In this document: piece by piece, positions 29,908-61,741 of the stretch
How the letters are laid out: every line of letters starts with the position of its first letter
Position numbering within the stretch: the stretch's first letter is position 1
From: an uncultured virus (IMG/VR IMGVR_UViG_3300042569_001723)
Taxonomy: Duplodnaviria; Heunggongvirae; Uroviricota; Caudoviricetes
DNA: 64,000 bases
Virus record (IMG/VR): IMGVR_UViG_3300042569_001723
Span: 1 to 64,000 of that record
Strand: one strand, 5' to 3'
Translations under genes and position numbers: made by a program
Notes under the pieces: model-generated
What the model saw: the letters and a program-made list of their open reading frames with translations, nothing else
Told to the model about the DNA's origin: nothing
Database searches by the model: none

Positions 29908-31812
29908 ATGAAAACAATTTTTAAACCTTGGGGTAAAGAAGAGTGGTTGGAGTTAAATGAAGTTTATTGTTATAAAAGAATTTATATCAATGCTGGTTAT
30001 AAAACATCTTACCAATATCATAACTTTAAAAGAGAAACAAATTATATCATCTCAGGACAGGCTGAAATATGGTTAGAGAATGAGGAAGGTGTGGTAGAGA
30101 AAAAGATAATGGGTCCCGGTGAATTCTATAACGTAAGACCACCCAAGAAACACAGGGTTATAGCACTTACTGATTTAATTATGCAAGAAGTGTCAACCCC
30201 TGAGGTTGATGACGTAATTAGAATTGAGGACGACACTAATCGTGCCGATGGTAAGATTGAGGGTGAACATAAGAATCCTGCGGTTTTAATTACCTGTGCT
30301 GGATTAGGTAGTAGATTAAAGAAGTTAACAAAAGACATTAATAAAACTCTATTACCGATTAATAATAAAGCAATCATATCACATATAATTGATATGTTCC
30401 CACCCACATATGATTTTGTAATTGCGTTGGGGTATCAAGGAAATTCTATTAAAGATTATTGTAAAATCACACACCCCAATCACAAATTTACATTTGTTGA
30501 AGTTGATAAATATGAAGGTGAAGGTACGGGTCCTGGATATAGTACACTACAATGTAAAGAACATCTTCAAAAACCATTTTACTTTATTATGGGTGACTGT
30601 TTGATTGATTCACCATTACCTTATATTGATGGAAATTGGTTGGGAGTACAACCAACGTCGTTTCCAGAAAAATACTCAACCATATCTGTTGATAACAATG
30701 ACAATATACTATCATTAGTTAATAAGAACGAAAACGGTAACGATTTAGCGTTTATTGGTTTAGGTGGGATTTTTAATTACGAAACATTTTGGAGTGAGTT
30801 GGAGAAGAACATTAAAGACGGTGAATTGGTTTGTGCATTTGAAAATCCAAAAATATTCCCAACACTAAAAATAAAAAAATTAAAATGGCTGGATACAGGT
30901 AATTTAGATGATTTAGAAAGGGCTAAGGAACATTTTAAAGATAACCCATTATCGTTAAAAAAAGACACAAGTGAAATAACATATAAAGATAATAACGTAT
31001 TTTTAAAGTTCACCCCAAACAAAAAATCATTAAACAATAGGATCATTAGGGCAAAACATTTGGAGGGATTGATACCCTTAGGATTTGGACACAGTGACAG
31101 TTTTATGTACTATGATTGGAACGAAGGTAAACCACCATACGAATTAGATAATTTAGATGTTTATACATCCTTTTTAAACGTTTTTAAAGAACAATTAAAA
31201 ACAACCGTTACAAATTCGGAATCAGATTTACATACGTTTTATGAACTAAAAACAAATGATAGGATGAATATGTTTTTAGGTAAATACGGTAATGATTATT
31301 ACAACTTAGAACATGAGATAAACGGAGTTAAAAGAACGGCAATGAAAACAATCCTTGATAAGTTTGACTTTACTAAGTTCAATAAAAACCCATTTTACAC
31401 AAAATTTCATGGTGATCTTCATTTTGATAATATGATTTATAATGAAAATGAAAATAAATACTATTACATAGATTGGAGGGATTCTTTCGGTGATTCTGTC
31501 GATTCTGGTGACATTTATTATGATTTATCTAAAATGTATGGTGGGTTATTAATACCATATGATTTAATGAGAGACGAAGATAAAATAACATATAACGAAG
31601 GTTCATATTCTATTAATTTTTCATACCCAATTTCAGAAAATTTAATTAAATTTAAGAATGTTTATGAAAATTGGATTTTACAAAATGGGTATGATTTAGA
31701 TTTAATTAAACAAATAACAGGATTAATATATCTAAACATGTCACCACTTCACGATGGTAAATTTGGTAAAATGTTATGGTTTAAATCAATTGAAATGTTA
31801 GAAAATGAATGA
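29908..31812 (+). CDS. Fusion of cupin, sugar-phosphate nucleotidyltransferase and choline/aminoglycoside-kinase-like domains
   Basis: KPWG..SYQYH..K.ET..HR..EVSTP cupin; CAGLGSRL..NKTL NTP transferase; FHGDLHFDN..IDWR..YDLSK kinase. Confidence 0.8.
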   Translation: MKTIFKPWGKEEWLELNEVYCYKRIYINAGYKTSYQYHNFKRETNYIISGQAEIWLENEEGVVEKKIMGPGEFYNVRPPKKHRVIALTDLIMQEVSTPEVDDVIRIEDDTNRADGKIEGEHKNPAVLITCAGLGSRLKKLTKDINKTLLPINNKAIISHIIDMFPPTYDFVIALGYQGNSIKDYCKITHPNHKFTFVEVDKYEGEGTGPGYSTLQCKEHLQKPFYFIMGDCLIDSPLPYIDGNWLGVQPTSFPEKYSTISVDNNDNILSLVNKNENGNDLAFIGLGGIFNYETFWSELEKNIKDGELVCAFENPKIFPTLKIKKLKWLDTGNLDDLERAKEHFKDNPLSLKKDTSEITYKDNNVFLKFTPNKKSLNNRIIRAKHLEGLIPLGFGHSDSFMYYDWNEGKPPYELDNLDVYTSFLNVFKEQLKTTVTNSESDLHTFYELKTNDRMNMFLGKYGNDYYNLEHEINGVKRTAMKTILDKFDFTKFNKNPFYTKFHGDLHFDNMIYNENENKYYYIDWRDSFGDSVDSGDIYYDLSKMYGGLLIPYDLMRDEDKITYNEGSYSINFSYPISENLIKFKNVYENWILQNGYDLDLIKQITGLIYLNMSPLHDGKFGKMLWFKSIEMLENE

Positions 31813-32584
31813 GACGTTATGGACATATGGTTGTAGTTGGACTAATTGGGATGAACTATTAGAAAAACATAAGGATTTTAAATTTTGGCCCAATATAGTT
31901 GCAAATAATTTTAATTATAATTTGATAAATCGTGGAGAAGGGGGAATATCAATAAATCAATCATTTGTAAAACTATTAAAAGATTTACCACTGATAAAAA
32001 AAAATGATATTATTATATTTGAATTCACATACCCCAATCGATATCATTTAAATTATATAATTGAAAATAACCCATTAAAATCTTGGGATTGTAATATTGC
32101 ATGTGATTATAATAAAGGGGTTGTTAGCAAATTTGATGTACACACCATTGATTATTTTAAAAGTGAAAAATTTTATAGTGAAGAAAAAATATTAAATTAT
32201 TTAGATTTCGTCACCGATTTTAATGATGAATTATTATTAAATGATTTTTTTACCGCTATTAATGTTTTTGATTATATTGAAAATACAATAGGAGCTAAAG
32301 TAAAATATTGGTTTTTAAAAATTTTTAATACTGAAACTACCGAATCAAAAATGGAAAAATTAACATATAGTGTGTGGAATAAAGATAGAATAATATCATT
32401 TCCTAATGGGGATAAGAATATTGATGCTACAGACTTTATAACAAAAATGAAACTTTTATTTAATGATGATAATGATATAAATTTAAAATGGGTAGATAAC
32501 GATTACCACCCAAATCAACTAGGACATTATACAATTGCAAATCATGTGATTAGTTCACTAAATAACAACGAAAAAACTATATGA
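31805..32584 (+). CDS. SGNH/GDSL-like protein
   Basis: YGCSWT, NRGEGG, DYHPNQLGH. Confidence 0.65.
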   Translation: MNETLWTYGCSWTNWDELLEKHKDFKFWPNIVANNFNYNLINRGEGGISINQSFVKLLKDLPLIKKNDIIIFEFTYPNRYHLNYIIENNPLKSWDCNIACDYNKGVVSKFDVHTIDYFKSEKFYSEEKILNYLDFVTDFNDELLLNDFFTAINVFDYIENTIGAKVKYWFLKIFNTETTESKMEKLTYSVWNKDRIISFPNGDKNIDATDFITKMKLLFNDDNDINLKWVDNDYHPNQLGHYTIANHVISSLNNNEKTI

Positions 32585-33204: not shown

Positions 33205-34141
33205 AGTTAGATATTTTATATGCCCCATGTCAAAAAACATAGTAGATAGTGTTATTGAAATGAATTCACCATTGATTGGTCTTTTACCTAGTCGAAGACA
33301 GGTTGAGTTTAATGGCGGGTATGTGAATAATTGGACAACTGAAGAATTTGTTAATTACATTAAAAATAAATCAAATATAGTTGTCGAAAGAGACCACGCT
33401 GGAATTGGACAGGGAGACGAGAATGAATATGATTCATATAAAATAGATTCTATGTTTATGGATATTATCCACATAGACCCATGGAAAAAATACTCTTTTT
33501 TTGAAGATGGTTTGTTAGAAACAATTAAAAATATTAATTACATATCAAATATAAATCCAAAAGTAAAATTTGAAATTGGAACCGAGGAATCAATTAGAAA
33601 ATTTAATTTTAAAGAAATTGTTGAATTAATACAAGAATTAAAGATGGAATTAAATTTGAATCAATTTGAAAATATACAATACATTTGTATTCAATCGGGA
33701 GTTGGATTAGATTTAATTAATAGGAAAAACACGGGAACATTTAACTTAGAAACATTAAGATTAATGATCGAAATATGTAGAAAGTTTAAAAAACAATCTA
33801 AGGAACATAATGGGGATTATCTTAGTAAAGAGGACATTCAAATTAGATTTGATAACGGATTAGATGCATTAAACATCGGTCCAGAAATTGCTCAAATAGA
33901 AACCGAAGTATATTTGAAACATATGAATGAAATTCAAATAAATGAGTTCTATCAAACATGTTTAGATTCAAAAAAATGGGTAAAATGGGTTAATGATAAT
34001 TTTGATGTTACAGATAAAGAAAAATTAATAATGGTATGTGGACATTATAATTTTAATAATTTACCGAATATTAAGATAGATAATGAAATGGTTAAAGAAA
34101 CCATAAAAAATAAACTAACAAATTTAATTAGTTACGTATAA
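33197..34141 (+). CDS. GatZ/KbaZ-like (tagatose-bisphosphate aldolase/epimerase family) TIM-barrel protein
   Basis: SRRQVE..GGY, RDHAG, IHIDP, EIGTEE, KEHNGDY, NIGPE. Confidence 0.65.
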   Translation: MCKVRYFICPMSKNIVDSVIEMNSPLIGLLPSRRQVEFNGGYVNNWTTEEFVNYIKNKSNIVVERDHAGIGQGDENEYDSYKIDSMFMDIIHIDPWKKYSFFEDGLLETIKNINYISNINPKVKFEIGTEESIRKFNFKEIVELIQELKMELNLNQFENIQYICIQSGVGLDLINRKNTGTFNLETLRLMIEICRKFKKQSKEHNGDYLSKEDIQIRFDNGLDALNIGPEIAQIETEVYLKHMNEIQINEFYQTCLDSKKWVKWVNDNFDVTDKEKLIMVCGHYNFNNLPNIKIDNEMVKETIKNKLTNLISYV

Positions 34142-34286
34142 TGAAAAAATTGTGGTTTTTTGGTGATTCATTTACAGACAATGATTTTAATAGGTTAAAG
34201 TTTAGAAAAGAGTACGACGACTATATAGTGAAATAGGGAATCATTTAATATCGGATTTATTATTTCACGAATTAAATAAACAATAA
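34141..34286 (+). pseudogene. Internally deleted SGNH-like gene remnant
   Basis: MKKLWFFGDSFTD...* (34141-34236) followed in another frame by an SGNH-type C-terminus GNHLISDLLFHELNKQ* (34236-34286). Confidence 0.65.
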
Positions 34287-34287
34287 T

Positions 34288-34641
34288 ATGATATACGCAT
34301 TTGATTTAGATGACACCCTTTGTACAAGAAGTCCTGATTTAGAATATTTGGGTCCTGACAAATATAAACACTGTTCACCAGTTGATAGGATGATTAAAAA
34401 GGTTAATAGATTATATGACGAAGGTCACACTATTTATATCTATACCGCGAGGGGAATGGGACAGTTTAATGGGGATTTGGTTAAGGTATATAATAATCTA
34501 TATGTTTTGACGTTAGATAGTTTAAAGGAATGGGGGATTAAACACCATGGTTTAATTATGGGTAAACTTCATTATGATTTACTAATTGACGATAAATCTA
34601 TAGGAAAATCGGAATTTGACCGATTTATAAATGAAGAATAG
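34288..34641 (+). CDS. HAD-superfamily phosphatase (capsule-biosynthesis BcbF/EcbF-like)
   Basis: FDLDDTLC, IYTARGM, MGK..YDLLIDDK. Confidence 0.8.
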   Translation: MIYAFDLDDTLCTRSPDLEYLGPDKYKHCSPVDRMIKKVNRLYDEGHTIYIYTARGMGQFNGDLVKVYNNLYVLTLDSLKEWGIKHHGLIMGKLHYDLLIDDKSIGKSEFDRFINEE

Positions 34642-34643
34642 TT

Positions 34644-36308
34644 ATGTACATTATTGGAATATCCGCATACTATCACGATTCATCCGTTTGTTTATTTAGA
34701 AACGGACAATTAGTATACGCTTGTGAAGAAGAAAAATTCACAGGGATAAAACATGACAGTTCATTCCCAATTAATTCATTAAATTACATATATAAACAAT
34801 ATAAATTAACCAAGGATAAAGTTGAGGCTGTATGTTATTATGAAAACCCAAAATTAAAATTAAAAAGGGTTATTGATAATACAAAAGGTCAGTTACTTAC
34901 TAATTCAATATATTGTATTAAATCATATTTTAATATTAAAAAAAATATATGGAATTTAAATAAATTGTTACCAAAATATGGTAACAAGGTATTTTACTCT
35001 AACCATCACGACTCTCACCTCTACTATTCTTTTTTTAGTTCTAATTTCGATAATGGTATTTGTTTATCAATAGACGGTGTTGGTGAATATGAAACAATGA
35101 CCATGGCGTTAGCAGATAAAAAGGGTATAAGTAAAATATCAATGGCGGAATATCCCCACTCTATCGGTTTATTTTATTCCGCAATGACATCATTCTTAGG
35201 GTTTAGACCAAATGAGGGGGAATATAAGGTAATGGGATTGGCACCTTATGGTAATCCAGATGTGTATATTGACAAAGTTAGAGAATTGATTAAGTATAAG
35301 AATAGTAAACTAACTTGTAACATGGATGTGTTTACATGGAATACATCAAATAAGTTAATGTTTAATGAGAAGTTAATTGAGTTATTAGGAATAGAACCAA
35401 GGGTTCCTGAAGGGGGTATAGAACCTCATTATAAAGACTTGGCAGCTTCGGTACAGAAAAGATATGAGGAAATACTTTTTGAGGTCTTAAAATCAATTTA
35501 TATGATAAATGACAATCGAAATTTATCATTAGGGGGTGGTTGTGCATATAACGGAACGGCTAACGGTAAAATAGTTAGAAACAGTCACTTCAATAATTTA
35601 TGGATACCACCAGCACCATCTGATGCGGGATCTGCAATTGGTGCTTGTGTTAATTATTTGGTAAATAATAATAAATTAAACGGTAGAATTAATAAGAATC
35701 CTTTTATCGGTCCATATTTTTATGAGAACCAAATACTTTCGGCCATCAAAGGTAAACGGTATTTTAAAATTAACTCCACCGAAACAATGGTGAGAAATGT
35801 TGCAAAAAAATTAAACGAGGGTAAAATCGTTGGGTGGTATCAAGGACCTTGTGAATTTGGTTCTAGAGCTTTAGGTCATAGGTCTATTTTAGCTAACCCA
35901 ACAATTGTTGGTATGAAGGATAAGATTAATAAAACCGTAAAGAAACGAGAAGAATTTAGACCATTCGCACCAATGGTTATTAAAGACAAACAACACATAT
36001 ACTTCAATTTAACTGATGATGTTCCATACATGAACCAAGTGGTTACTGTTAAAGATGAGTACTTGGATAAATTACCCGCAGTTACACATGTTGACGGAAC
36101 CGCAAGAATACAAACAGTTTATAAACATACGATGATGTATAATTTATTAGTTGAGTTTGAGAAACTTAGCGGTTATCCAATATTATTGAATACGTCATTT
36201 AATGTAAAAGATAAAACAATGGTATTAACACCAAAAGATGCGGTTGATACATTTAATAATACGGATATTGATTTGTTAATAATAGACAATTACTTAATTT
36301 ATAAATAA
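34644..36308 (+). CDS. Carbamoyltransferase (NodU/CmcH family)
   Basis: YHDSS, EEEKF..IKH, HHDSH, DGVGE, EYKVMGLAPYG, GGCAYN, RALGHRS, FRPFAP, NTSFN. Confidence 0.92.
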   Translation: MYIIGISAYYHDSSVCLFRNGQLVYACEEEKFTGIKHDSSFPINSLNYIYKQYKLTKDKVEAVCYYENPKLKLKRVIDNTKGQLLTNSIYCIKSYFNIKKNIWNLNKLLPKYGNKVFYSNHHDSHLYYSFFSSNFDNGICLSIDGVGEYETMTMALADKKGISKISMAEYPHSIGLFYSAMTSFLGFRPNEGEYKVMGLAPYGNPDVYIDKVRELIKYKNSKLTCNMDVFTWNTSNKLMFNEKLIELLGIEPRVPEGGIEPHYKDLAASVQKRYEEILFEVLKSIYMINDNRNLSLGGGCAYNGTANGKIVRNSHFNNLWIPPAPSDAGSAIGACVNYLVNNNKLNGRINKNPFIGPYFYENQILSAIKGKRYFKINSTETMVRNVAKKLNEGKIVGWYQGPCEFGSRALGHRSILANPTIVGMKDKINKTVKKREEFRPFAPMVIKDKQHIYFNLTDDVPYMNQVVTVKDEYLDKLPAVTHVDGTARIQTVYKHTMMYNLLVEFEKLSGYPILLNTSFNVKDKTMVLTPKDAVDTFNNTDIDLLIIDNYLIYK

Positions 36309-36489: not shown

Positions 36490-36924
36490 ATGATATATTG
36501 GTTAACAGGACAGCCCGGTGCAGGTAAAACAACCCTAGCGAAATACTTGGTGGAATATTTCCCTAAAGATGAGGTTATTCACATCGATGGGGATGACCTA
36601 AGAGACATCTTTAAGAATAAAGACTATTCCATCACAGGAAGAAGATTAAACATTCAAAGAGCACAATATATTGCACAATTTATGCATAGTAAGGGTCACA
36701 ATGTTATTGTATCCTTAGTTTCACCATATAGAGACCAAAGAGAATCGTTTAAGTTCAGCACATCAGTTGTTGAGATTTATGTTCACACTACAGAGGATAG
36801 GGGTAGGAATGAATTCCACGTTGAGGAATATGAACCCCCATTAGAAAATTTTATAGATATAGACACAACAATAAAAAACGAAACGGATTCATATTATGAA
36901 CTGTTAAAAAAATTATCATTATGA
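36490..36924 (+). CDS. cysC: Adenylyl-sulfate (APS) kinase
   Basis: WLTGQPGAGKTT P-loop, IDGDDLR, SLVSPY, YEPP. Confidence 0.88.
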   Translation: MIYWLTGQPGAGKTTLAKYLVEYFPKDEVIHIDGDDLRDIFKNKDYSITGRRLNIQRAQYIAQFMHSKGHNVIVSLVSPYRDQRESFKFSTSVVEIYVHTTEDRGRNEFHVEEYEPPLENFIDIDTTIKNETDSYYELLKKLSL

Positions 36925-37301
36925 GTAAGAAATATGCAATGTACATCGGTAGGTGGCAAAATTGGCACAAAGGTCACGAATGGTTGATTCGCCAACAAAT
37001 GGACCAAGATAAGAACGTATGGGTGGCTATTAGAGATGTTGAAGTTGATGAGAACAATCCAAAGACAGCCCAAGAGGTTTTTCAAATGTTAATTCAAGAA
37101 CCATTTTTTAATGAGAATTTTGATAAGATTTTATTATCAATTATTCCGGATATTGAATCGGTTAATTACGGTAGAGGTGTTGGTTATGATGTAATTTATC
37201 ATGAGCCACCAGCGGATGTGGCGGTAATAAGCGGAACAGCCATTAGAACTGGTCACATGACACCTGATGGTGAAATTAAATATGATCAAACAAAAGGATA
37301 A
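36921..37301 (+). CDS. HxGH nucleotidyltransferase (cytidylyltransferase-like; possible minimal sulfate adenylyltransferase)
   Basis: IGRWQNWHKGH, YGRGVGY, ISGTAIR; coupled to cysC. Confidence 0.7.
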   Translation: MSKKYAMYIGRWQNWHKGHEWLIRQQMDQDKNVWVAIRDVEVDENNPKTAQEVFQMLIQEPFFNENFDKILLSIIPDIESVNYGRGVGYDVIYHEPPADVAVISGTAIRTGHMTPDGEIKYDQTKG

Positions 37302-37516
37302 TGATGGTAGAACGTAAGAGACACATAGCCAAAACCGTTTCATATCGAATCGTAAGCACCTTAATAGGGTTCTTATTAATGTGGTGGATTAGTGGGTCAA
37401 TAAAGGTAGGTACAGCATTTGGCGTGGCTGAATTAATATATAAACCAATACAATATTATATTCACGAAAGGATATGGTATAGATGGATAAAATTTGGATT
37501 AAAAGATAAAAAATAG
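37301..37516 (+). CDS. DUF2061-like small membrane protein
   Basis: RHIAKTVSYRIVST...YYIHERIW. Confidence 0.75.
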   Translation: MMVERKRHIAKTVSYRIVSTLIGFLLMWWISGSIKVGTAFGVAELIYKPIQYYIHERIWYRWIKFGLKDKK

Positions 37517-37517
37517 G

Positions 37518-37524
37518 TATTTAT
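37518..37524 (+). promoter_or_regulatory. TATTTAT putative late-promoter motif
   Basis: In a 26-nt intergenic gap directly upstream of 37543. Confidence 0.5.
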
Positions 37525-37542
37525 ATATAAAATAAGGAAAAT

Positions 37543-39042
37543 ATGAGAACAGTATTAATAGGTTCGGACTTTATGTACGATCAGGATGGTAATTTAAAAC
37601 CCATCGAAATAAACACCGCAGTTGGTTGGGATAACGCATCCAAAGTTGAAGATGATGTGGATTGTTTGGATTTAACAAATTTATACCAATTTGTTACTGA
37701 TAATAATTTCCAAAATATACATTACGTTGGGGATATTCAATATTTTCATAAAACATTAGAAACACACTACACAGGAAGTTCCGTTACATATGAATACCAC
37801 GCAATTGGTGGTTTGTCGATTACTATCCCAGTTATAGAGGATAATGATGAAACATTAATTATCAGAAGTGCATATGATACAACTGCGTTGGTAGATGATA
37901 CCTATTGTAGAGATAAGGTTGAATTTATGAAACTTATCCAATCCCAATCGTTCGGTTCACAATTTGCTTACATAGATGAAAACAACACTTTAATTAATAC
38001 TATAACAACAATAACAGATAATGGTGTACACCCTAATTTTATTCTAAAATCAAGGTATCCTGGCTATGATAAAGAGGTTTATCCTAAATTTTATAAAGTA
38101 ACAACACAAGAAGAATTAGATGTGGTTTTAGAAAATGTTACATCTGAATATTTTTTAATGGAAAACTACTGTAACACCACTAATAGTTACGAAGGTCACA
38201 TAAAGGTAGTTAGAAGTTTAAACATATTATACCCACCGACGTTACAATCAATTCATATAGGACAATATACTAAATTAAATGAAAATATATTTTTTACTGA
38301 TGTAGAATATAACTCAGAAACTTATGAGATAAATTCAGAATATAGAGATAGTTATACAACTTCTGTAAATAGTAACTGGTTACCAAAACTGTTAGATACT
38401 GATTTAGTAGAAATGGCTGACGGCACATTTAAAACCGCATTAGATTTAAATGTTGATGATGTAATTAAAACAATTGATATACCAAATCCAAATGGCACAG
38501 ATAATGCATCCTATACCGCAAATTTTGGAATAACGTATGAAACATTACTAAGTGGTACAACATATTCAACAAACAAAATTAATGCATTAAAAAGAGTTAA
38601 TAAATTATCATATTTTTATCAATTAACTTTTGACGATAATAGTACTTGGGAGGATACGGGAGTTTCTTCGTATTTGATTGAAAGAAATAATGAAGTTCAA
38701 TTTGAAAATTTATTTGATGTGGTATCTGGAGATGCGGTTTTATTGTTAAACACAACGGATGGGTTAATGGATTTTGTTAGAAAAACAGTAGTATCTGTTA
38801 CACAAATTAAAAAAGTATTTACCGGTTGGTTTATTTCAGTAGAAAGAACACACTTATTTTTAACTAAGACCACATCAACAAATAACGAATCGTTTGTTTC
38901 GATTGAACATAATGGACCTAGTTGTCCAGTGGGATGTTGTTGGGGGGGCGCTTGTCCGACTTGTCCAAAAAACGAACCATATTGTTCCGGTCCATACGGT
39001 AACCCGACTTGTAATGCTTATCAAGGAATATGTTGGAGTTAA
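37543..39042 (+). CDS. Fusion of a circularly permuted ATP-grasp-like domain, a Hint (intein-like) domain and a C-terminal Cys-rich 42-aa peptide
   Basis: SDF..D..G.LKPIEINT, RDK, FILKSR, YFLMENY; Hint block A-like KLLDTDLVEMADGTFKTALDLNVDDVI (res 282); HLFLT...EHN (456-457) followed by GPSCPVGCCW... Confidence 0.7.
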   Translation: MRTVLIGSDFMYDQDGNLKPIEINTAVGWDNASKVEDDVDCLDLTNLYQFVTDNNFQNIHYVGDIQYFHKTLETHYTGSSVTYEYHAIGGLSITIPVIEDNDETLIIRSAYDTTALVDDTYCRDKVEFMKLIQSQSFGSQFAYIDENNTLINTITTITDNGVHPNFILKSRYPGYDKEVYPKFYKVTTQEELDVVLENVTSEYFLMENYCNTTNSYEGHIKVVRSLNILYPPTLQSIHIGQYTKLNENIFFTDVEYNSETYEINSEYRDSYTTSVNSNWLPKLLDTDLVEMADGTFKTALDLNVDDVIKTIDIPNPNGTDNASYTANFGITYETLLSGTTYSTNKINALKRVNKLSYFYQLTFDDNSTWEDTGVSSYLIERNNEVQFENLFDVVSGDAVLLLNTTDGLMDFVRKTVVSVTQIKKVFTGWFISVERTHLFLTKTTSTNNESFVSIEHNGPSCPVGCCWGGACPTCPKNEPYCSGPYGNPTCNAYQGICWS

Positions 39043-39067
39043 TAAAAATAATAAAAATTAAAATAAT

Positions 39068-39157
39068 ATGACAACTATAATAACAAACACAGAAATCAAC
39101 GTACTGAACACAACTTTAACTACCATTGGCAATTTAATTGTAACTGCAAATAGTTAA
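39068..39157 (+). CDS. 29-aa Thr/Asn/Ile-rich micro-ORF
   Basis: Manual translation MTTIITNTEINVLNTTLTTIGNLIVTANS; A-rich upstream context like neighbouring genes. Confidence 0.5.
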   Translation: MTTIITNTEINVLNTTLTTIGNLIVTANS

Positions 39158-39175
39158 TTCTAAAAATAATAGGTT

Positions 39176-39706
39176 ATGATTTACTTCATTCCAAATATTC
39201 TTTCAAAGGAGGAATGTGTATTTTTATCTAAACAATTTGATATTGAAAAGGTAAATAACTCTTCTAGTGATAAAATGGTAGAAACGAATGCTTCTTTTGG
39301 ATTTAGACCTTCATATAATTTTGATAAATATATGGAAAAATTAAAACCAAAAGTGTTAGAATTCAATAATGGAATTGAACATTTAGATAATGTGAACACA
39401 TATGTTAGGGAGTATTTCAATGGTGCATTTTTAACAAAACATATAGATAGAACAGATATAAGTGTAACAATTTCAATATGTTTAGAGTCAACAATAAACA
39501 AAGAATGGCCATTATTTGCTAAAATAGGTGGTGAAGAATACTCACATCACACAAATATAGGCGACGGAATATTATTATTTGATGCTGATAAAAACGTTCA
39601 TTGGAGAAATCCTTTAGAATGCGACGAAACCCAAAGAGTATTACAATTTTTTCTACATTGGATGCCGGTTAACTATATAACAAAAAAAACAAAATCATTA
39701 ATATAA
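39176..39706 (+). CDS. 2OG-Fe(II) oxygenase
   Basis: LTKHIDR (HxD), GDGILL, HWR, QFFLHW. Confidence 0.8.
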   Translation: MIYFIPNILSKEECVFLSKQFDIEKVNNSSSDKMVETNASFGFRPSYNFDKYMEKLKPKVLEFNNGIEHLDNVNTYVREYFNGAFLTKHIDRTDISVTISICLESTINKEWPLFAKIGGEEYSHHTNIGDGILLFDADKNVHWRNPLECDETQRVLQFFLHWMPVNYITKKTKSLI

Positions 39707-39712
39707 AAAGTT

Positions 39713-40285
39713 ATGTCGTTTACATATAAATCCGTATCAAATTTATTAACAAAAGAAGAATGTGATTTAGTTCTGAATTTCACATTAGAAAATTTAATAT
39801 TAAATCCTGCAAAAACCATTGGTTATGATTCCCCAACTTATGGTACCAGAAAATCAAATGTGGTATTTTATCCATATTATCAAAAATTTCCATTTATATT
39901 AGAAAAAATATCTAAATTATTAGATGAAAATATCACCATAAAAGGATTCGATTTAGATTACAAAAATAGTCAATTCCAATTCACAGAATATAAAGATGGT
40001 GATTTTTTTGTTTGGCATAAAGATATTACAGGAAAAGAAGTTACACAACACGAAAGATATTGTTCTTTAGTTATACAACTAAATGATGAATATGAAGAAG
40101 GTGATTTAGAATTAAAATTATCCGATGGTTCAATAATGAAAGTAGAAAAGGGAATAGGTAACACTATCGTTTTTTTATCTGATATCGATCATAGAGTAAC
40201 GGTAGTTAAAAATGGTAATAGATATACATTAGTTAATTGGGTTGCAATAAAAGAAAAAAGTAGTTATAAAAAAACACTCTTATAA
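39713..40285 (+). CDS. 2OG-Fe(II) oxygenase (prolyl-hydroxylase/PKHD-like)
   Basis: QFTEY..GDFFVWHKD, QLNDEYEEGDL, HRVTVV..GNRYTLVNW. Confidence 0.85.
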   Translation: MSFTYKSVSNLLTKEECDLVLNFTLENLILNPAKTIGYDSPTYGTRKSNVVFYPYYQKFPFILEKISKLLDENITIKGFDLDYKNSQFQFTEYKDGDFFVWHKDITGKEVTQHERYCSLVIQLNDEYEEGDLELKLSDGSIMKVEKGIGNTIVFLSDIDHRVTVVKNGNRYTLVNWVAIKEKSSYKKTLL

Positions 40286-40286
40286 T

Positions 40287-40589
40287 ATGATAGATCTCAA
40301 AGAAATTTCAATCGCGTGGTACAATACACTTATACACTCTAATGAATTAAAAAAATTGGCAGATGATAGGTTTGATATTTGTTTAGAATGCCCATCTAAA
40401 CAAGAATTTTTTAAAAATAAAAATAAAGAATGGTCATTAAAATGTGGAGAATGTGGTTGCCCATTAAAAGGTAAAGTATACACACCCAAAACATATTTAG
40501 ATAAAAAGGGATCGTGTCCGTTAGGAAAGTGGAAACAAGTTGAAGATGAATATTTAAAAGGGTTTAAATCAACTAAAACAATTATATAA
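40287..40589 (+). CDS. Small Cys-rich protein (CxxC, CxxCxC, CPxxKW), probably metal-binding
   Basis: RFDICLECP, CGECGCPL..K, CPLGKW. Confidence 0.65.
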   Translation: MIDLKEISIAWYNTLIHSNELKKLADDRFDICLECPSKQEFFKNKNKEWSLKCGECGCPLKGKVYTPKTYLDKKGSCPLGKWKQVEDEYLKGFKSTKTII

Positions 40590-40591
40590 AA

Positions 40592-41272
40592 ATGTCTCAT
40601 TTAATTAATAATGAACTCATTTGGGTTTCTATCCCAAAGTGTGCCAGTTATTCCATTGAACAATCATTAAGAAACTCAAAATTAAATTTAGAAATATTTG
40701 TACCAAATGACAAAACACGGCATTTTCACGTACCGGTGAATCAATGTTTAGAACGATGGGGGGATAAAGAAACTGTTTGTATAACACGTGATTGGTTATC
40801 TAGATGGTTAAGTGCCCTAAATTTTGTTTGGGATAATATAGAATTTGAAAGCGAATACACTGCTGTTCGTAAATGGGAGGATGTTGATAATGAATATATC
40901 TATAAAACATTTAATACCGATTTTTTAAATAAATTACATTTGTTGAGTAACGATCACGATGGATTTAGGAAGTGCTGGTTTAAACTAGTAAAAGAAAATT
41001 TTGAATGTGAATTACCGATTAGAGGTGCGGTTGACACTTTACTTTCCCAAAGATTTTTCAAATCTAATAAAAAATGTACCTACGAATTTGACATTAGTGA
41101 AATTGATAAATTTACAGATTTTATAGAAGATAGATTTGGAGAAACATTAATTATAAATCACACAAATAAAACATCCAAACGACCAAATAAGATAATTGTA
41201 AATGACGAATTAAAATCATTCATTTGGGAAAATTTTGAAAAGAGATTTGAAAAGGGAAATCATTTAATATAA
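40592..41272 (+). CDS. Sulfotransferase family 2-like protein
   Basis: WVSIPKCASYS 5'-PSB loop; RDWLSRWLS 3'-PB motif. Confidence 0.7.
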   Translation: MSHLINNELIWVSIPKCASYSIEQSLRNSKLNLEIFVPNDKTRHFHVPVNQCLERWGDKETVCITRDWLSRWLSALNFVWDNIEFESEYTAVRKWEDVDNEYIYKTFNTDFLNKLHLLSNDHDGFRKCWFKLVKENFECELPIRGAVDTLLSQRFFKSNKKCTYEFDISEIDKFTDFIEDRFGETLIINHTNKTSKRPNKIIVNDELKSFIWENFEKRFEKGNHLI

Positions 41273-42003
41273 TGTTAATAGATAAAAAATTTATTTTTAT
41301 AAGTTTACCAAGATGTGCTTCAACATCATTTATGATTACGTGTCTAAAAAACAAGATACCAGTAGAACATTTCAATTCAAACCTTGATAATCAGTTGATT
41401 AAAATAAATGAATGGGAAAAAATGAATAATGAAGAATTGGCGGATAGTTTAGTACACGCACATGAACCATTATATATATTACAAGAAAAATTTGGTATAA
41501 ACAATCAAATTATTTCAATAAGAAGAAACAATTATGATAGATTTTTATCTTTATGGAAACACATTATAGATGAATTATACAGAAAAAATAAATTTGATAT
41601 TGCTGATAAATTTTCAAAGTTAACAACTAATGATATGTTTGATAATATCACATCAAATGACATTTATAATTTGGAAAATAGGTCTAAAGTTATTGATAAT
41701 TTTTTAACTAAGTTAAAAATTTCAAAAAAAGAGTCCTATACTAAAAATATGTTAGATATATTATTTACACCAGTAGTTGAACTCACAAATAGTAATCCAA
41801 ATATTATTTGGTTTGATATTGATAATTTGGTGGAATTAGAAAATTGGGTATCAAAAAAATTAAATAAGGATTTTAAAATGGAAAAAATAAACTCAAGTAA
41901 ACAATTTGAGTGTGTAATAGAAATCAATGATAATTTTAAACAAAAATATGATAATCTTTATAAAGAGTTTGAACAAAGAAAAATAAATAAAACATTATTA
42001 TGA
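41272..42003 (+). CDS. Sulfotransferase family 2-like protein
   Basis: FISLPRCASTS; RNNYDRFLS; KINSS. Confidence 0.7.
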   Translation: MLIDKKFIFISLPRCASTSFMITCLKNKIPVEHFNSNLDNQLIKINEWEKMNNEELADSLVHAHEPLYILQEKFGINNQIISIRRNNYDRFLSLWKHIIDELYRKNKFDIADKFSKLTTNDMFDNITSNDIYNLENRSKVIDNFLTKLKISKKESYTKNMLDILFTPVVELTNSNPNIIWFDIDNLVELENWVSKKLNKDFKMEKINSSKQFECVIEINDNFKQKYDNLYKEFEQRKINKTLL

Positions 42004-42563
42004 AAAAAATAATTTTGAATGACACATATGGTTATGAAGAATTCATAACAAATGAAGAACAAGAAAATCTTTTATTTTGGACAAATTCTAATTCACATCT
42101 ATTTCAAATAAACACAACTAATAGTCATACCATAAATGCGCCATATGGTTCTAGACAAATCGGTGTATTAACAAAAATATTAAATTCACCATTAGATTTG
42201 GTAAAAAAAATAAAGGATAGGGTAATTGAAGTAGAAAAAATTAATGATTGGATATTAGACCCAATGTTTGAAGACGCAATTGGTATTAATAAAGAAGGGG
42301 GTTCAATTCATTTACATAGTGATTCAAATTTAGATGGATATACACATGTTAGATATAACATAATACTATCATATCCACATGAAGGCGGACACTCAATATA
42401 TAATGGTAAGATTAATGAGTTAAAAGAAAGAATGGTTTGGAGGTGTGTTGCTGGTAGGGTCGAACATGGCAGTATGCCGGTAATAGGAGAAAAACCAAGA
42501 ATAACTTTAACATTAGGATTTCAAATAAAGGATAAAGTAAAAAAAGAAAAAACTTTATTTTAA
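42000..42563 (+). CDS. 2OG-Fe(II) oxygenase
   Basis: GGSIHLHSD, EGG, EHGSMPV.G..PRITL. Confidence 0.75.
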   Translation: MKKIILNDTYGYEEFITNEEQENLLFWTNSNSHLFQINTTNSHTINAPYGSRQIGVLTKILNSPLDLVKKIKDRVIEVEKINDWILDPMFEDAIGINKEGGSIHLHSDSNLDGYTHVRYNIILSYPHEGGHSIYNGKINELKERMVWRCVAGRVEHGSMPVIGEKPRITLTLGFQIKDKVKKEKTLF

Positions 42564-43034
42564 ATGGAAATATATAAAAATCTTTTACCCAACGAATTTT
42601 GTGATAATTTAATAGATAAAATTAAGAATGAATGTGTTTTAAGTGAATCCCATAAAACAAACTGGTTTGTTTGGTTGATATGGGGTCAACAAGGTATTCA
42701 ACTACTAGAAAGAGAAAAGTGGAATGAAGAAATTTATAATACAGTTATAAATGAGTTGAGTAAAAATAATTTCCCTAATTACAAAACGATGTGGTTACAA
42801 ATGACCGAATATAAGGATGGTAGGTGGTTACGAAGACATGTAGATGGTGCAAAAAATAAAACATCAATAATTTTGTTATCCAATGGGTTTATAGGTGGAG
42901 ATACATATATAAATAATAAAGTTGTAAATTTAAAAAAGGGAGATGGTGTTGTATTTGATGGCGGTCATCAATATCACGAAGTAAAACCAGTTACAGAAGG
43001 AACACGATACGCATTAAATTTTTGGTTTCATTAA
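42564..43034 (+). CDS. 2OG-Fe(II) oxygenase
   Basis: RRHVD, GGDT, HEVKPVTEGTRYALNFW. Confidence 0.82.
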   Translation: MEIYKNLLPNEFCDNLIDKIKNECVLSESHKTNWFVWLIWGQQGIQLLEREKWNEEIYNTVINELSKNNFPNYKTMWLQMTEYKDGRWLRRHVDGAKNKTSIILLSNGFIGGDTYINNKVVNLKKGDGVVFDGGHQYHEVKPVTEGTRYALNFWFH

Positions 43035-43043
43035 TAATAAAAT

Positions 43044-44084
43044 ATGGTAGATTTAAAAAATTACATATGTGGTGTACCATTCAACTCATTGGAAATACAC
43101 AATAATCAATATTTTTTGTGTTGTCCATCTTGGTTAAATGTTTCATTTAAAAGAGATGAATATAAATTAAATGAAATATGGAATAGTGAACCTGTTCAAG
43201 AGATTAGAGAAAGTATGTTAGATGGTTCATTTAAGTATTGTAATAAAGAACTTTGTCCATTTTTAAGTAAATTAGTAAATTATGGGGTTGCAAATGGTCC
43301 AATTACTTTAAAATCAAATTCAAATATTAATAATACTATTATAGAAAATAACACTCCTGATATGTTAATGATGAACTTTGATAGAACTTGTAATTATAAA
43401 TGTCCATCTTGTAGGGTAGATTTAATTGTTGAAAACAGTAATGGAATTAAACGGATAGAGAAAACAATTGAAGAAATTGATACTCATTATTCTGCAAATG
43501 TGAAATCACTATATATAACAGGATCAGGAGACCCGTTTGTTTCGGTTGGGTTTAGAAATTATCTAAGAAATTTTAATCCTAAAAAATATCCAAAACTGCA
43601 ATCAATACATCTTCATACAAACGCATCAATGTGGAATAAAGAAATGTGGGATAGTATGCCAAATATACATAAATATGTTCATAGTTGTGAAATTAGTATA
43701 GATGCAGGTACAAAAGACACCTATGAAAATAAAACAAGAATAGGTGGTAATTGGGAAAATCTAATAAACAATTTAAAATTCATTAATACATTACCAATAA
43801 GTGTTAAAACTTCATTTGTGGTACAAGATACAAATTATACCGAAATGGAAACATTTTATAATTTAATGTATTCTATTTTTGGTAAGAAAGTAAATGTGTT
43901 TTTCGGTAAGATAACTAATTGGGGCACATTTTCAGAGGGCGAGTTTAAATTAAAACAAGTTTGGAATACAAATCATCCAGAACATGAATTATTTAAAAGA
44001 GAGTTTAATAAAGTGTGGAAAAACACAAATCTATTTCATAATCTATATGAGTTTATTGATACTACAAATAAAACGTTAATATGA
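43044..44084 (+). CDS. Twitch/SPASM-domain radical SAM protein
   Basis: CGVPF..LCCPSW..EIWNS..YC...CP; CNYKCPSC; GSGDPF; ISIDAG. Confidence 0.85.
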   Translation: MVDLKNYICGVPFNSLEIHNNQYFLCCPSWLNVSFKRDEYKLNEIWNSEPVQEIRESMLDGSFKYCNKELCPFLSKLVNYGVANGPITLKSNSNINNTIIENNTPDMLMMNFDRTCNYKCPSCRVDLIVENSNGIKRIEKTIEEIDTHYSANVKSLYITGSGDPFVSVGFRNYLRNFNPKKYPKLQSIHLHTNASMWNKEMWDSMPNIHKYVHSCEISIDAGTKDTYENKTRIGGNWENLINNLKFINTLPISVKTSFVVQDTNYTEMETFYNLMYSIFGKKVNVFFGKITNWGTFSEGEFKLKQVWNTNHPEHELFKREFNKVWKNTNLFHNLYEFIDTTNKTLI

Positions 44085-44623
44085 GAATTTTAATTATTGC
44101 ATTATCAAGAAGTGGTGGATATCAATTGAATGAATGGTTGTCTATGGAGCTAGAACATAAAATGATACATGAACCAATATACACAAATCAATCCATTGAA
44201 GGAAACAATATTGTGGTAAAATATAATATTAGTGAAATTGAAAATAGAATGGATATTGATTTAACAAATTGGGATAAGATAATTGGATTAACGCGTGAGG
44301 ATGCGAGAGAGTGTTCAATATCACATACCAAAGCAGTACAACGAAAGGAATGGAGAAATGGGTATGAAGTAAGTGATGAATGGATAAAAGAAAACGAAAT
44401 AGACATAAAATATTTTGAGGAATGGGTAAATAATACAATTGACTATTTTAATACAATAAAAGAAATTCAGTTAAAAGTTACATATGAAGGGATATACGAC
44501 ACCAAAGAGGATATACAAAGAATAAAAGATTATATTGGTTTAACAAGTACAAAGTATGAACACCTATTAGATAATACAAATAGGTTAAGAAATAGGAGGA
44601 AAACAAAAAGAAAATTTTTATAA
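44081..44623 (+). CDS. Sulfotransferase-like P-loop protein
   Basis: ILIIALSRSGG, HEP, LTRED..E..IS, VTYE. Confidence 0.6.
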   Translation: MRILIIALSRSGGYQLNEWLSMELEHKMIHEPIYTNQSIEGNNIVVKYNISEIENRMDIDLTNWDKIIGLTREDARECSISHTKAVQRKEWRNGYEVSDEWIKENEIDIKYFEEWVNNTIDYFNTIKEIQLKVTYEGIYDTKEDIQRIKDYIGLTSTKYEHLLDNTNRLRNRRKTKRKFL

Positions 44624-44633
44624 ATTAAGAAAA

Positions 44634-45134
44634 ATGATATTAAAAGAAAAAATCTTATTTAGTAAAGAGGAGTGTGAGTCCATTATATTAGAATCCAATC
44701 AACATATTACAAATTGGAGAATGGGGGATAGAAAATATAATTCACAACCAATTGATTATTCATTAGAAACCAATTGGTTATTTGATAAGTTGAAGGATTT
44801 TGTGGAAAGGGAAACAAACATTGAAATTAGAACAATAAAAAAAACGATACATTTGCATAAATTTACGAAAGGTGATTGGTTTGGAAAACACAATGATATT
44901 AGAGATAACAGATTATATGCGGTTGGTGTTTTATTAAATGATAACTTTGAAGGTGGTGATTTTACATTGTATAATCCAAATGAAATAATTTTAAATAAAA
45001 TTATTGGAAACACTTATATATTTGATGTAGGAATTGAGCATGAAATAGCACCAATTTTAGAAGGTGAACGATACTCATTACTTTGGTTTTTACAAAATGA
45101 ACATATAAAAACAGAAACAAATAAATTAATATGA
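44634..45134 (+). CDS. 2OG-Fe(II) oxygenase
   Basis: GDWFGKHND, LNDNFEGGDF, HEIAPILEGERYSL. Confidence 0.85.
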   Translation: MILKEKILFSKEECESIILESNQHITNWRMGDRKYNSQPIDYSLETNWLFDKLKDFVERETNIEIRTIKKTIHLHKFTKGDWFGKHNDIRDNRLYAVGVLLNDNFEGGDFTLYNPNEIILNKIIGNTYIFDVGIEHEIAPILEGERYSLLWFLQNEHIKTETNKLI

Positions 45135-45937
45135 ACCCATTAGAATATTGGAACCCGAAAGGATTTGAAATCTCATCTTACAAATATTCATTAAAAGAAA
45201 GAGTAAATCAGACATATACAACTTCCGGTGGAGATAATACAGGACTATGTACCTACACCTATAATGAATTAGGATTTAGAGGTGATAGTATAAAAAAAGA
45301 AGGTTTTAAAGTTATGTCATTAGGTTGTTCAATTACGGAAGGAGTCGGTGTCAATGATAATGAAACTTGGCCGGCACAATTTTGTAACCATATTGAAAAT
45401 GGGGTAAATTTAAACTTTGGAACAGGAGGAAGAAGTAACGATTTTATATGTAGATGTTTAATGAGTTACTATGATTTAATTAAACCAGATTTGGTATTAA
45501 TAATGTATACAAATACATTTAGAAGAGAATTATATACTAAAGATGGGGGAATAGAACCCTTTATGCCCACATTATCTTGGGGATATTTGAAAGAAACAGA
45601 TGATGGTGTTAAAACACAAGAATATTTAACTTATTTACAAAATGATAATGAAGATTTTATAAATTGGTACAAAAATCATTTATTAATAAAGCATTTTTTA
45701 GAATCTAAAAAATGTAATTGGATATGGAATGGTTTTTTCCACATACCAAAAGATTATAATGAATTTAACAGATTCGATGGTGATTACGGAAGACCTTTTT
45801 TGGATTATGGAGTTGATGACATACATCCAGGACCAAACCATAATAAAACCTATTCATATAAATTACACAATTTTATAACTAAAAACTTCTCAAGTTATTT
45901 GAATGATTTATCAAAAATTAAACAAAATTTAATTTGA
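45131..45937 (+). CDS. SGNH/GDSL-like protein
   Basis: NELGFRG, LGCSITEGVG, NFGTGGRSN, DDIHPG. Confidence 0.7.
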   Translation: MNPLEYWNPKGFEISSYKYSLKERVNQTYTTSGGDNTGLCTYTYNELGFRGDSIKKEGFKVMSLGCSITEGVGVNDNETWPAQFCNHIENGVNLNFGTGGRSNDFICRCLMSYYDLIKPDLVLIMYTNTFRRELYTKDGGIEPFMPTLSWGYLKETDDGVKTQEYLTYLQNDNEDFINWYKNHLLIKHFLESKKCNWIWNGFFHIPKDYNEFNRFDGDYGRPFLDYGVDDIHPGPNHNKTYSYKLHNFITKNFSSYLNDLSKIKQNLI

Positions 45938-61730: not shown

Positions 61731-61741
61731 TAAATGTAATT

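Follow-up and report, generated by a model that had tools for sequence, protein, structure and literature searches.

A stretch of 64,000 nucleotides from an uncultured tailed phage (Caudoviricetes; IMG/VR IMGVR_UViG_3300042569_001723), hereafter called the window, was analyzed around a gene group at positions 37518-45937, which had been proposed from the DNA letters alone to encode the precursor of a peptide that is made by the ribosome and modified after translation (RiPP) together with its tailoring enzymes. The analysis revealed that this group is a genuine phage module, widespread and as yet without a name, with an unusual and putatively self-processing architecture centered on a gene (37543-39042, plus strand) whose 499-residue product, the precursor, is composed of an ATP-grasp domain, a Hint domain and a tail of approximately 40 residues. 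The reading that we tentatively favor, at somewhat short of an even chance, is that of a module of large freshwater myoviruses built round the self-processing precursor of a Cys-rich peptide and equipped with optional peptide-tailoring enzymes. Within this reading, the precursor idea is supported by the sequence comparisons described herein, and the tailoring of the tail peptide by the neighboring enzymes is put forward as a hypothesis.

The precursor gave no match in Pfam, PHROGs or NCBIfam, and the searches of the PDB with the single sequence and with a profile returned nothing significant, the only match being the Ataxin-1 AXH domain with an E value of 0.7. Its family, nevertheless, proved to be large, comprising 772 proteins at E ≤ 1e-3 in a 90%-clustered collection, nearly all of which were 490-500 residues long, and 365 representative clusters (50%) at the same threshold among 1.84 billion proteins; no member was found in the cultured-phage collection. 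For the neighborhood survey, the proteins of the window were mapped onto 80 related viral loci, 27 of which had full 10-kb flanks, and further viral and metagenome loci showed the same gene pattern.

Since the first full-length AlphaFold2 (AF2) model was poor for residues 1-279 and good only for residues 280-440, the assignment of the N-terminal part relied on an AF2 model that covered residues 1-282 and drew on 99 diverse sequences, and which reached a predicted local distance difference test score (pLDDT) of 94.6 and a predicted template modeling score (pTM) of 0.89. A Foldseek search with this model retrieved 8fbz (E 9.6e-6), 1m0w, 2hgs and YgiC (7uk8), the E values for glutathione synthetase, YgiC and YjfC structures ranging from 9.6e-6 to 1e-4, and VIA-align gave Z values of 8.4-7.1, middling by the tool's own caveat, with 5oeu, 7uka, 2wyo, 2io7 and 9cjn in alignments starting from residue 1. 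The classical ATP-grasp enzymes (RimK, TTLL and LysX with Z values of 5-6.5, and also Ddl) could be aligned only from about residue 55. The closest matching structures were of the eukaryotic glutathione synthetase, glutathionylspermidine synthetase (GspS) and YgiC/YjfC types, and the nearest solved enzymes all couple a carboxylate, often that of a peptide C-terminus, to an amine. The N-terminal part of the precursor (residues 1-279; 37543-38379, plus strand) is thus, in the predicted structure, a permuted, glutathione-synthetase-like ATP-grasp ligase, and given the alignment from residue 1 with the permuted enzymes, a permuted strand order would fit its N-terminal D-x12-E-x-N motif. Because D9, E22, N24, R108, D118 and R224 were invariant in the 99 diverse relatives, this domain looks catalytically intact, the mapping of these residues to catalytic positions being inferred; K169 was nearly invariant across the family.

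The following residues 280-457 (38380-38913, plus strand) were assigned to a divergent Hint domain ending in His456-Asn457 by a Foldseek search with the full-length model. All 40 of the top matches listed from the PDB were inteins, hedgehog or bacterial intein-like (BIL) domains, with a best E value of 3.5e-7, a template modeling score to the target of up to 0.72 and a model confidence of 70-88 for residues 280-440, and the ESM Atlas neighbors of the precursor included phage protein clusters in which 81-95% of the members carried PT-HINT. Asn457 was invariant and His456 at least 90% conserved among 90 sequences of 22-91% identity, and xEHN or xQHN stood at the end of the Hint domain in all 80 loci. 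These observations supported the original prediction of a precursor with a Hint fold. The Hint domain of the window's protein itself had no Pfam match, and in our own reading of the intein blocks an invariant Pro281-Lys282 occupied the position of the intein Cys1 in block A, and no Thr-x-x-His of block B was found in the domain; apart from His456, no His was conserved within residues 280-457. The residue following Asn457, examined in 204 unique short tails (median 38 residues), was Ala in 28, Phe in 25, Tyr in 25, Gly in 24, Leu in 22, Val in 17, Ser in 15 and Pro in 11, among others, and Cys in 1. Protein splicing of the intein type was ruled out on the grounds of Pro at position 1, the absence of Thr-x-x-His and the rarity of a nucleophile after Asn. 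The variable and rarely nucleophilic +1 residue fits instead a cleavage without splicing, and a cyclization of Asn457 that cuts the bond behind it would be chemically possible.

The tail that such a cleavage would release (residues 458-499 and the stop codon; 38914-39042, plus strand) contains 8 Cys and a conserved C-P-K, and shared only 39% identity (28% without the Cys columns) over 115 pairs, versus 79% for the body of the protein. A hypervariable Cys-rich segment thus follows the Hint domain, in support of the original prediction, and a leader-like conserved part followed by a variable core is present as in RiPP precursors. The number of Cys residues was 6 in 56 of the 204 tails, 8 in 138, 10 in 6, 12 in 1 and 4 in 1, and was thus even in 202 and odd in 2. 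Exactly one Lys occurred in 159 of these tails and C-x-K in 175, Asp and Glu were both absent from 58, and the overall composition was 18.8% Cys, 11.1% Pro, 10.3% Gly and 7.3% Tyr, Ser being also abundant. The even parity is what disulfide pairing would give and what one-sided thioether crosslinks would not need, and the tails therefore point to cysteines that form disulfides rather than thioethers. The thioether crosslinks of the original prediction are disfavored by this parity, by the lack of the radical S-adenosylmethionine (SAM) gene in 11 of the 27 fully flanked loci, and by the matches of the radical SAM protein to sactipeptide maturases, which fell far below threshold. Metatranscriptome contigs with 0-1 differences covered 37547-37720, 37907-38170 and 38189-38339, all within the precursor gene only, and left most of the cluster uncovered, from which nothing follows; these being contigs only, in which DNA carry-over is possible, they provide weak evidence for expression of the precursor.

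The Cys-rich tail was found to be exchangeable, as 22 relatives carried a long cargo of 84 to 1242 residues in its place. In 20 relatives the cargo domains were BACON (P0178, P0181 and P0188), the tail-fiber chaperone Peptidase_S74 (P0182 and P0187) or a second canonical Hint domain, and none of these 20 showed a toxin domain in its cargo. To judge from these comparisons, the ATP-grasp-Hint module is a constant head behind which the cargo varies from one relative to the next. P0172, P0193 and P0215 were also among the relatives in which another cargo replaces the Cys-rich tail, and the BACON domains lay within cargoes of 700-1240 residues. No viral locus was found for P0178, and a scan of metagenomes gave only short-tail relatives.

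Two small proteins accompany the precursor with great regularity. The micro-ORF that had been predicted behind the precursor was confirmed at 39068-39157 (plus strand) and encodes a 29-residue protein ending in ...IGNLIVTANS, a member of a conserved family of 24-30 residues which started 9-58 nucleotides past the precursor stop in 79 of the 80 loci, occurred in metagenome loci too, and shared the C-terminus ...IG(N/S)LI(V/I)xxNS. Neither of the distant loci L082 and L142 showed it. Its IG(N/S)LI(V/I) and Asn-Ser end resembles the C-terminal tag of the enzymes described below, and also the last intein strand with its +1 residue. The second protein, likewise confirmed as the small Cys-rich protein of the original prediction, is zinc-ribbon-like (DUF6171-like; 40287-40589, plus strand; 100 residues, ending in the tag KTII) and was also present in 79 of the 80 loci, where it started less than 200 nucleotides past the precursor stop in 46, 200-2000 nucleotides past it in 29, and directly upstream of the precursor in 3. 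Its C32, C35, C53, C56, C58 and C77 were invariant, and 10 columns were invariant across all tail types; DUF6171 was matched by 8 of 39 members (best E 1.2e-4), zinc-ribbon families were matched weakly as well, and the ESM Atlas neighbors were viral hypothetical clusters. A complex prediction for the precursor, the micro-protein and the zinc-ribbon protein gave scores of 0.42, 0.48 and 0.17 against 0.24 for the control, which speak neither for nor against binding, the 29-residue chain lying outside the calibration. Two zinc-ribbon paralogues flanked the precursor in L125. L035 and L061 turned out to be one 211-kb contig bearing two precursor modules about 38 kb apart, whose tails differ and whose precursors were 52% and 47% identical to that of the window.

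Behind the precursor follow the enzymes, all on the plus strand and tightly packed like the other genes of the region, with no terminator-like site on the plus strand inside 37518-45937; every open reading frame (ORF) that had been drawn in the cluster was recovered in its place. Five of them had been called 2-oxoglutarate (2OG)-Fe(II) oxygenases, and three of these assignments were firm. The protein encoded at 39713-40285 (tag KTLL), of the prolyl-4-hydroxylase/PiuC family, matched PF13640 (E 5e-12) and phrog_61 (E 1.5e-24) and occurred in 65 of the 80 loci; that at 42564-43034, which has no tag, matched PF13640 (E 7.6e-10), phrog_61 and PiuC structures (E 0.007) and occurred in 33; and that at 44634-45134 (tag NKLI) matched PF13640 (E 1.1e-5; 26.7 bits versus a cut-off of 27) and phrog_61 (E 2.6e-11) and occurred in 64. 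The other two gave profile-level hints only. The product of 39176-39706 (tag KSLI) may be 2OG-oxygenase-like, as it matched phrog_2954 (E 1e-17) and phrog_3531 and was aligned by hhalign with that of 39713-40285 at a probability of 77.8% (E 1.9e-5) with the HxD motif in register, and the product of 42000-42563 (ending in KTLF; 1 of 80 loci) is possibly 2OG-like through phrog_13746 (E 3.5e-6), which was also matched by 42564-43034. Sequence searches of the PDB with the 2OG proteins gave marginal matches only (4iw3, E 0.055, besides PiuC).

The three predicted sulfotransferase-like genes fared less evenly, with weak support for two. The protein of 40592-41272 (tag NHLI; 46 of the 80 loci), with the N-terminal motif SIPKCASYS, had no sequence match in the PDB, and up to 5 of the 30 members of its alignment (A8) matched Sulfotransfer_1/2/3/4 Pfam models (best E 5.5e-5); the protein of 41272-42003 (tag KTLL; 32 loci) matched phrog_3347, galactose-3-O-sulfotransferase, with an E value of 1.2e-4. 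The third, a 180-residue protein ending in RKFL (44081-44623; 8 loci), showed an N-terminal SRSGG motif when read by eye but had no match in Pfam, PHROGs or NCBIfam. The alignment A8 had also taken in the ORFs 21476, 28545 and 31805, which belong to another family and were rejected at 13-16% identity and with a different N-terminal motif (FGCSFT). These three paralogues (21476-22171, 28545-29213 and 31805-32584) open with (T/Y)(F/Y)GCS(F/W)T, which resembles SGNH block I with Cys replacing Asp; they had no family match, and their homologues lay within the downstream cluster in the loci L019-L026.

The predicted twitch/SPASM radical SAM enzyme (43044-44084; tag KTLI) was firm as a radical SAM protein (Pfam Radical_SAM, E 1.7e-7, 32 bits; 41 loci, median identity 81%) and has a Cys-rich, twitch-like N-terminal region. 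It stayed below the cut-offs of the more specific models, scoring 61 bits (E 9.4e-17) versus a cut-off of 170 with the N_Twi_rSAM model NF033640 and 24-31 bits against cut-offs of 395-625 with the sactipeptide/SPASM maturase models, and a sequence search of the PDB gave no match. The ORF at 45131-45937 (tag QNLI; 41 loci), predicted as an SGNH protein, is there, and is DUF6071-like and possibly an SGNH-type esterase, a label which comes from matches to DUF6071 (E 0.0033, below the cut-off) and to the acetylxylan-esterase model AxeA1 (E 0.0064); its paralogue at 25901-26812 matched DUF6071 with an E value of 9.7e-12.

On the other side of the precursor, the predicted CysC module was firmly identified as a gene for an adenylyl sulfate (APS)-kinase-like P-loop protein (36490-36924, plus strand; Pfam APS_kinase, E 8e-17; 30 of the 80 loci), which would supply 3'-phosphoadenylyl sulfate (PAPS) and which matched NCBIfam adenylyl-sulfate kinase models with E values down to 3e-18 at scores under the cut-offs. 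It is always accompanied by a nucleotidyltransferase-like protein of 126 residues (36921-37301, plus strand; NCBIfam NMN-adenylyltransferase, E 1.3e-7, below the cut-off; 40 loci). The first half of phrog_10255 ('kinase') matched 36490-36924 and its second half 36921-37301, and the gene pair was kept in 30-40 loci. These two genes stand between a carbamoyltransferase of the NodU/CmcH type (34644-36308, plus strand; Pfam Carbam_trans_N, E 1.6e-57, and Carbam_trans_C, E 3.8e-63; 43 loci) and a small DUF2061 membrane protein (37301-37516, plus strand; Pfam E 5.4e-15; 41 loci, median identity 86%). The TATTTAT motif said to precede the precursor was read directly at 37518-37524 (plus strand), 19 nucleotides before the start codon, but its role as a signal did not hold. 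The 11-mer GTATTTATATA occurred 7 times with one mismatch allowed, versus 8.2 expected by chance, a sigma-70 scan gave 135 sites versus 135 expected, and a promoter was accordingly rejected. With at most one mismatch, GTATTTATATA stood at four sites on the plus strand (191, 1232, 37517 and 53198), three of which were 26-77 nucleotides before gene starts, those of a fiber-like gene at 1309, the precursor and the second collagen-like fiber.

A feature that unites most of the enzymes is their C-terminus. A pair of Leu or Ile residues ended 13 of the 53 ORFs in the window, versus 1.9% expected, and eight of these ends were found among the eleven ORFs after the micro-ORF, a ninth ORF (42000-42563) ending in KTLF. 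In the related loci, a hydrophobic pair ended 268 of 298 unique homologue contexts, with the consensus K-K-T-L-I, and tag-like ends recurred in L082. About twelve unrelated enzyme families of the surrounding gene island carry such a K-T-L-I-type tag, at 21476-22171, 23697-24347, 26812-28560, 28545-29213, 31805-32584 and 39176-45937; the carriers include the 2OG, sulfotransferase-like, radical SAM, DUF6071-like and zinc-ribbon proteins and the paralogues 21476 and 28545, with the variant EKTI in the paralogue 31805. The tag was absent from the carbamoyltransferase (0 of 15 distinct C-termini), the PAPS genes, DUF2061, the glycosyltransferases, the precursor and the structural genes. A DNA-level signal such as translational coupling seemed unlikely, as the tag codons were synonymously diverse and the next ATG was scattered from -9 to beyond +30 nucleotides, none being found in 23 of the 268 contexts; the same observations indicate that the tag is selected at the protein level. 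Candidate readers are the ATP-grasp domain, as a domain acting on C-terminal carboxylates, or a degron reader. Like the ATP-grasp domain and the regular pairing of the precursor with its two small partners, the tag had not figured in the original prediction.

According to the reading favored here, Asn457 would cyclize and cut the bond behind it to yield a mini-peptide with a free N-terminus. This peptide would form 3-4 disulfides and fold on leaving the reducing cytoplasm; on the surface of the virion or in the lysate, it might then serve as a binding knob or a protease-inhibitor-like loop (C-P-K). The prolyl-4-hydroxylase-type 2OG oxygenases would serve as optional tailoring enzymes for hydroxylation of Pro or Asn, and the PAPS-fed sulfotransferase-like enzymes for sulfation of Tyr or hydroxyl groups; the radical SAM enzyme is probably not a maker of Cys thioethers, and the ATP-grasp domain may contribute to this pathway by coupling a carboxylate to an amine. 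This view is favored by the membership of the 2OG enzymes in PF13640, a family of protein prolyl hydroxylases, by the tails with 11% Pro and 7% Tyr as compared with fiber repeats devoid of proline, and by the PAPS-supply genes directly upstream of the precursor region. The gene neighborhoods show that the enzyme families co-occur with the precursor. In the fully flanked loci, a 2OG gene was found in 22 of 27, a sulfotransferase-like gene in 22 and a radical SAM gene in 16, and in none were all three missing, so that the three families are frequent but replaceable neighbors of the precursor.

Several observations weigh on the other side. Each enzyme family is dispensable, radical SAM being absent from 11 of the 27 loci, 2OG from 5 and sulfotransferase-like genes from 5, and on a distant branch (L082; 31% identity), where the precursor has a 6-Cys tail and its zinc-ribbon gene, its neighbors are sugar-nucleotide genes and the tail sheath, and no Pfam match to 2OG, radical SAM or sulfotransferase families was obtained within 10 kb. 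All the loci come from related phages, and plain synteny could explain much of the linkage. The island abounds in glycosyltransferases, methyltransferases and enzymes of sugar-nucleotide metabolism, the hints for the sulfotransferases point to carbohydrate enzymes, and the tag is also carried by upstream paralogues that sit among glycosyltransferases. The BACON domain or tail-fiber chaperone in the cargo slot of relatives fits a structural adhesin better than a RiPP, and the precursor family has not kept the block-F His that inteins have. Finally, the chemistry as a whole is inferred, cleavage, modification and ligation alike being predictions.

The setting of the cluster gives weight to a rival explanation. 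The window makes up the first 64 kb of a viral contig of 77.8 kb, whose completeness of 23% (CheckV) points to a genome size of roughly 300 kb or above; DNA near-identical to the window was present in many lake-water metagenome runs, and neither a DNA nor a protein search matched it in the cultured-phage collection. Two collagen-like giant tail-fiber genes (5949-12641 and 53229-60986, plus strand; PHROG tail-fiber families) enclose an approximately 37-kb island of enzyme genes with a low GC content, which contains GT7-LamG fusions, GT2, GT4-FkbM and GT9 glycosyltransferases, methyltransferases, a cupin-nucleotidyltransferase, three radical SAM genes, the carbamoyltransferase, the APS-kinase-like gene and the cluster at 37518-45937. 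The fibers contain 846 and 1176 residues of (Gly-Thr/Ser-Ser/Ala)n repeats with zero proline and likewise without Lys, Asp or Asn. Prolyl hydroxylation of the fibers was rejected on account of these proline-free Gly-X-Y repeats, which are, by their composition, prime candidates for dense O-glycosylation or O-sulfation. Further features of this region are worth recording. LamG-domain proteins follow each fiber (12643-14076 and 61035-62560), and the tandem fusions at 18652-20076 and 20073-21470 join GT7 (beta-4-galactosyltransferase-like) with a LamG/ConA-like lectin, which is unusual for a phage enzyme. A 31-residue ORF at 34141-34236, whose start MKKLWFFGDSFTD resembles GDSL/SGNH block I, runs into a stop and is followed by a 117-residue HAD/PNK-phosphatase-like ORF (34288-34641), possibly a broken or split gene. 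Outside the window, the minus strand of the contig holds a second block of about nine genes (65517-73832) which begins with an NAD-epimerase-like start; as read from the N-termini only, it has glycosyltransferase- and methyltransferase-like starts, and one of its nine genes has a tag-like end.

In this rival explanation, which takes up the fiber-glycan alternative of the original prediction and to which we give a real but lesser chance, the enzymes would decorate a glycan built by the island or the Ser/Thr-rich collagen-like fibers, and not the tail peptide, through O-glycosylation, sulfation, carbamoylation, methylation and acyl editing, with the precursor in the operon as a further tailoring enzyme by virtue of its ATP-grasp domain or merely by synteny. 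It would account for the island of glycosyltransferase, cupin-nucleotidyltransferase, methyltransferase and carbamoyltransferase genes, continued by the sugar genes at 65.5-73.8 kb, for the long Gly-Thr/Ser-Ser/Ala repeats, for the carbohydrate-type character of the best sulfotransferase hints (phrog_3347 and Sulfotransfer_2), and for the sugar-nucleotide genes that adjoin the precursor in L082. There is also a precedent: Iyer et al. 2010 (PMC2938197) described operons in which genes for 2OG hydroxylases, sulfotransferases and PAPS synthetases occur together with those for collagen-like/tail-collar proteins, the latter proposed as the substrates, as well as tandem dioxygenase arrays in cyanophage Syn9. 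The window resembles those operons in its tandem of dissimilar 2OG oxygenases, its PAPS supply and its collagen-like fiber-type proteins, but the ATP-grasp-Hint precursor, the micro-protein and the zinc-ribbon partner are not part of the operons as presented in that text, and the oxygenases here belong to PF13640 as opposed to the beta-hydroxylase/phytanoyl-CoA hydroxylase families given there. All of the components are in the window, yet the fibers lie 7 and 25 kb away, the sulfotransferase calls are weak, and the repeats offer no hydroxylatable Pro. PF13640-type enzymes are known, moreover, as protein hydroxylases, for which the fiber repeats hold no Pro, Lys, Asp or Asn; the enzymes are packed directly behind the precursor in most loci, with fiber genes within 10 kb in 4 of 80; and the glycosyltransferases lack the tag common to the 2OG, sulfotransferase-like, radical SAM and zinc-ribbon proteins.

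It is improbable, in our estimation, that the 499-residue product stays uncleaved as a virion-surface or fiber-associated protein, with its Cys-rich C-terminus as a receptor-binding knob and the Hint domain as a degenerate spacer in which His-Asn is kept for folding. The BACON and Peptidase_S74 domains behind the same module in the five relatives named above agree with such a role, as do the position of the gene between fiber clusters with LamG adhesin-like proteins, the fast evolution of the C-terminus, which is typical of receptor-binding tips, and a Hint domain that has neither the N-terminal nucleophile nor TxxH nor a block-F His that is conserved. An Asn457 that is invariant, together with the high conservation of His456, across very different cargoes is, however, hard to explain without catalysis, and an ATP-grasp domain with conserved residues of the catalytic type is not a known structural module.

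We likewise assign a small probability to an ATP-driven ligation of peptides or proteins by a system of an undescribed kind, in which the Hint domain would free the α-amine of the peptide and the ATP-grasp domain would join a C-terminal carboxylate to that amine or to the conserved Lys. The carboxylate might be the peptide's own, giving a head-to-tail cyclic cystine-rich peptide as a phage analogue of cyclic knottins, or that of the K-T-L-I-COOH tags, which would be capped with a hypervariable cystine module; for either variant, the C-terminal tag and the micro-protein would be docking elements. Least probable is a pearlin-type logic with the micro-protein (39068-39157) as the true substrate and scaffold peptide, to whose C-terminus the ATP-grasp domain would add an amino acid to be tailored by the oxygenases, sulfotransferases, radical SAM enzyme and carbamoyltransferase and freed as a small molecule by a hydrolase: the presence of the micro-protein in nearly all loci with a conserved C-terminus (...IGxLIxxxNS), the fact that a C-terminal carboxylate is what the nearest ATP-grasp structures (glutathione synthetase, GspS/YgiC, RimK and the E-64 ligase Cp1B) all extend or amidate, and the esterase-like gene that closes the cluster would suit it, but the Hint domain and the hypervariable Cys-rich tail are left unexplained, the micro-protein was not seen in L082 and L142, which keep the precursor and zinc-ribbon genes, and neither an aminoacyl-tRNA-dependent ligase nor a dedicated peptidase was identified.

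With the self-processing precursor again taken as the favored reading, its architecture can be compared with those of known systems. In proteins with BIL and pretoxin-HINT (PT-HINT) domains, a Hint domain links a conserved N-terminal part to a C-terminal cargo of high variability, and the terminal His-Asn of the precursor could similarly free its cargo by Asn cyclization without splicing. The precursor differs from them in having no Pfam Hint match and no N-terminal nucleophile, and in that its N-terminal partner is an ATP-grasp enzyme and not a secretion or trafficking domain; unlike in polymorphic toxins, no toxin domain turned up in the cargoes, and the neighboring zinc-ribbon protein is conserved and does not co-vary as an immunity protein would. 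Conotoxins and knottins combine a conserved precursor body with a hypervariable mature peptide of approximately 30-45 residues on a fixed framework of 6-8 Cys; squash-type trypsin inhibitors have a Cys-Pro-Lys/Arg reactive loop, cyclic knottins exist, and the modifications of conotoxins include hydroxyproline and sulfotyrosine. The precursor shares with these the hypervariable peptide, the 6-8 Cys and a single conserved Lys after Cys (C-P-K), but they are eukaryotic, secretory and cut by proteases, whereas the present family is set in phages and has a putative Hint release. A peptide with six or more Cys whose radical SAM neighbor has an auxiliary-cluster region recalls SCIFF/ranthipeptides and sactipeptides, from which the module differs in that the radical SAM gene is not obligatory, the maturase models scored far below cut-off, and the Cys number is almost always even.

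The tie between an ATP-grasp ligase and a ribosomal peptide with conserved and variable parts is shared with the graspetides, among which the microviridins are protease inhibitors. The ligase of the module is, in contrast, of the glutathione-synthetase/GspS type, the graspetide ligase 7mgv ranking 43rd with a Z value of 4.0, and enzyme and peptide are joined by a Hint domain within one chain. Since 58 of the 204 tails have neither Asp nor Glu, crosslinks through side-chain esters or amides cannot hold for the family in general. The graspetide survey by Makarova et al. 2022 (PMC8939145) uses none of the words Hint, intein and phage in its main text, and in full-text literature searches neither an ATP-grasp-Hint fusion nor this phage cluster was found described.

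The precursor family has at present neither a name nor a Pfam model. If the favored reading is true, large freshwater phages would make hypervariable, disulfide-rich mini-peptides by means of a Hint domain fused to an ATP-grasp ligase, a release route unreported for any ribosomal peptide. The module would also offer an entry into the substrates of the many 2OG oxygenases of aquatic phages, into the reason why phages supply PAPS, and into the question of whether a short C-terminal tag can organize a whole set of phage enzymes. Such a fast-evolving peptide would be a candidate player in the arms races between phages and their hosts or grazers, and its family may constitute a natural library of small cystine scaffolds.

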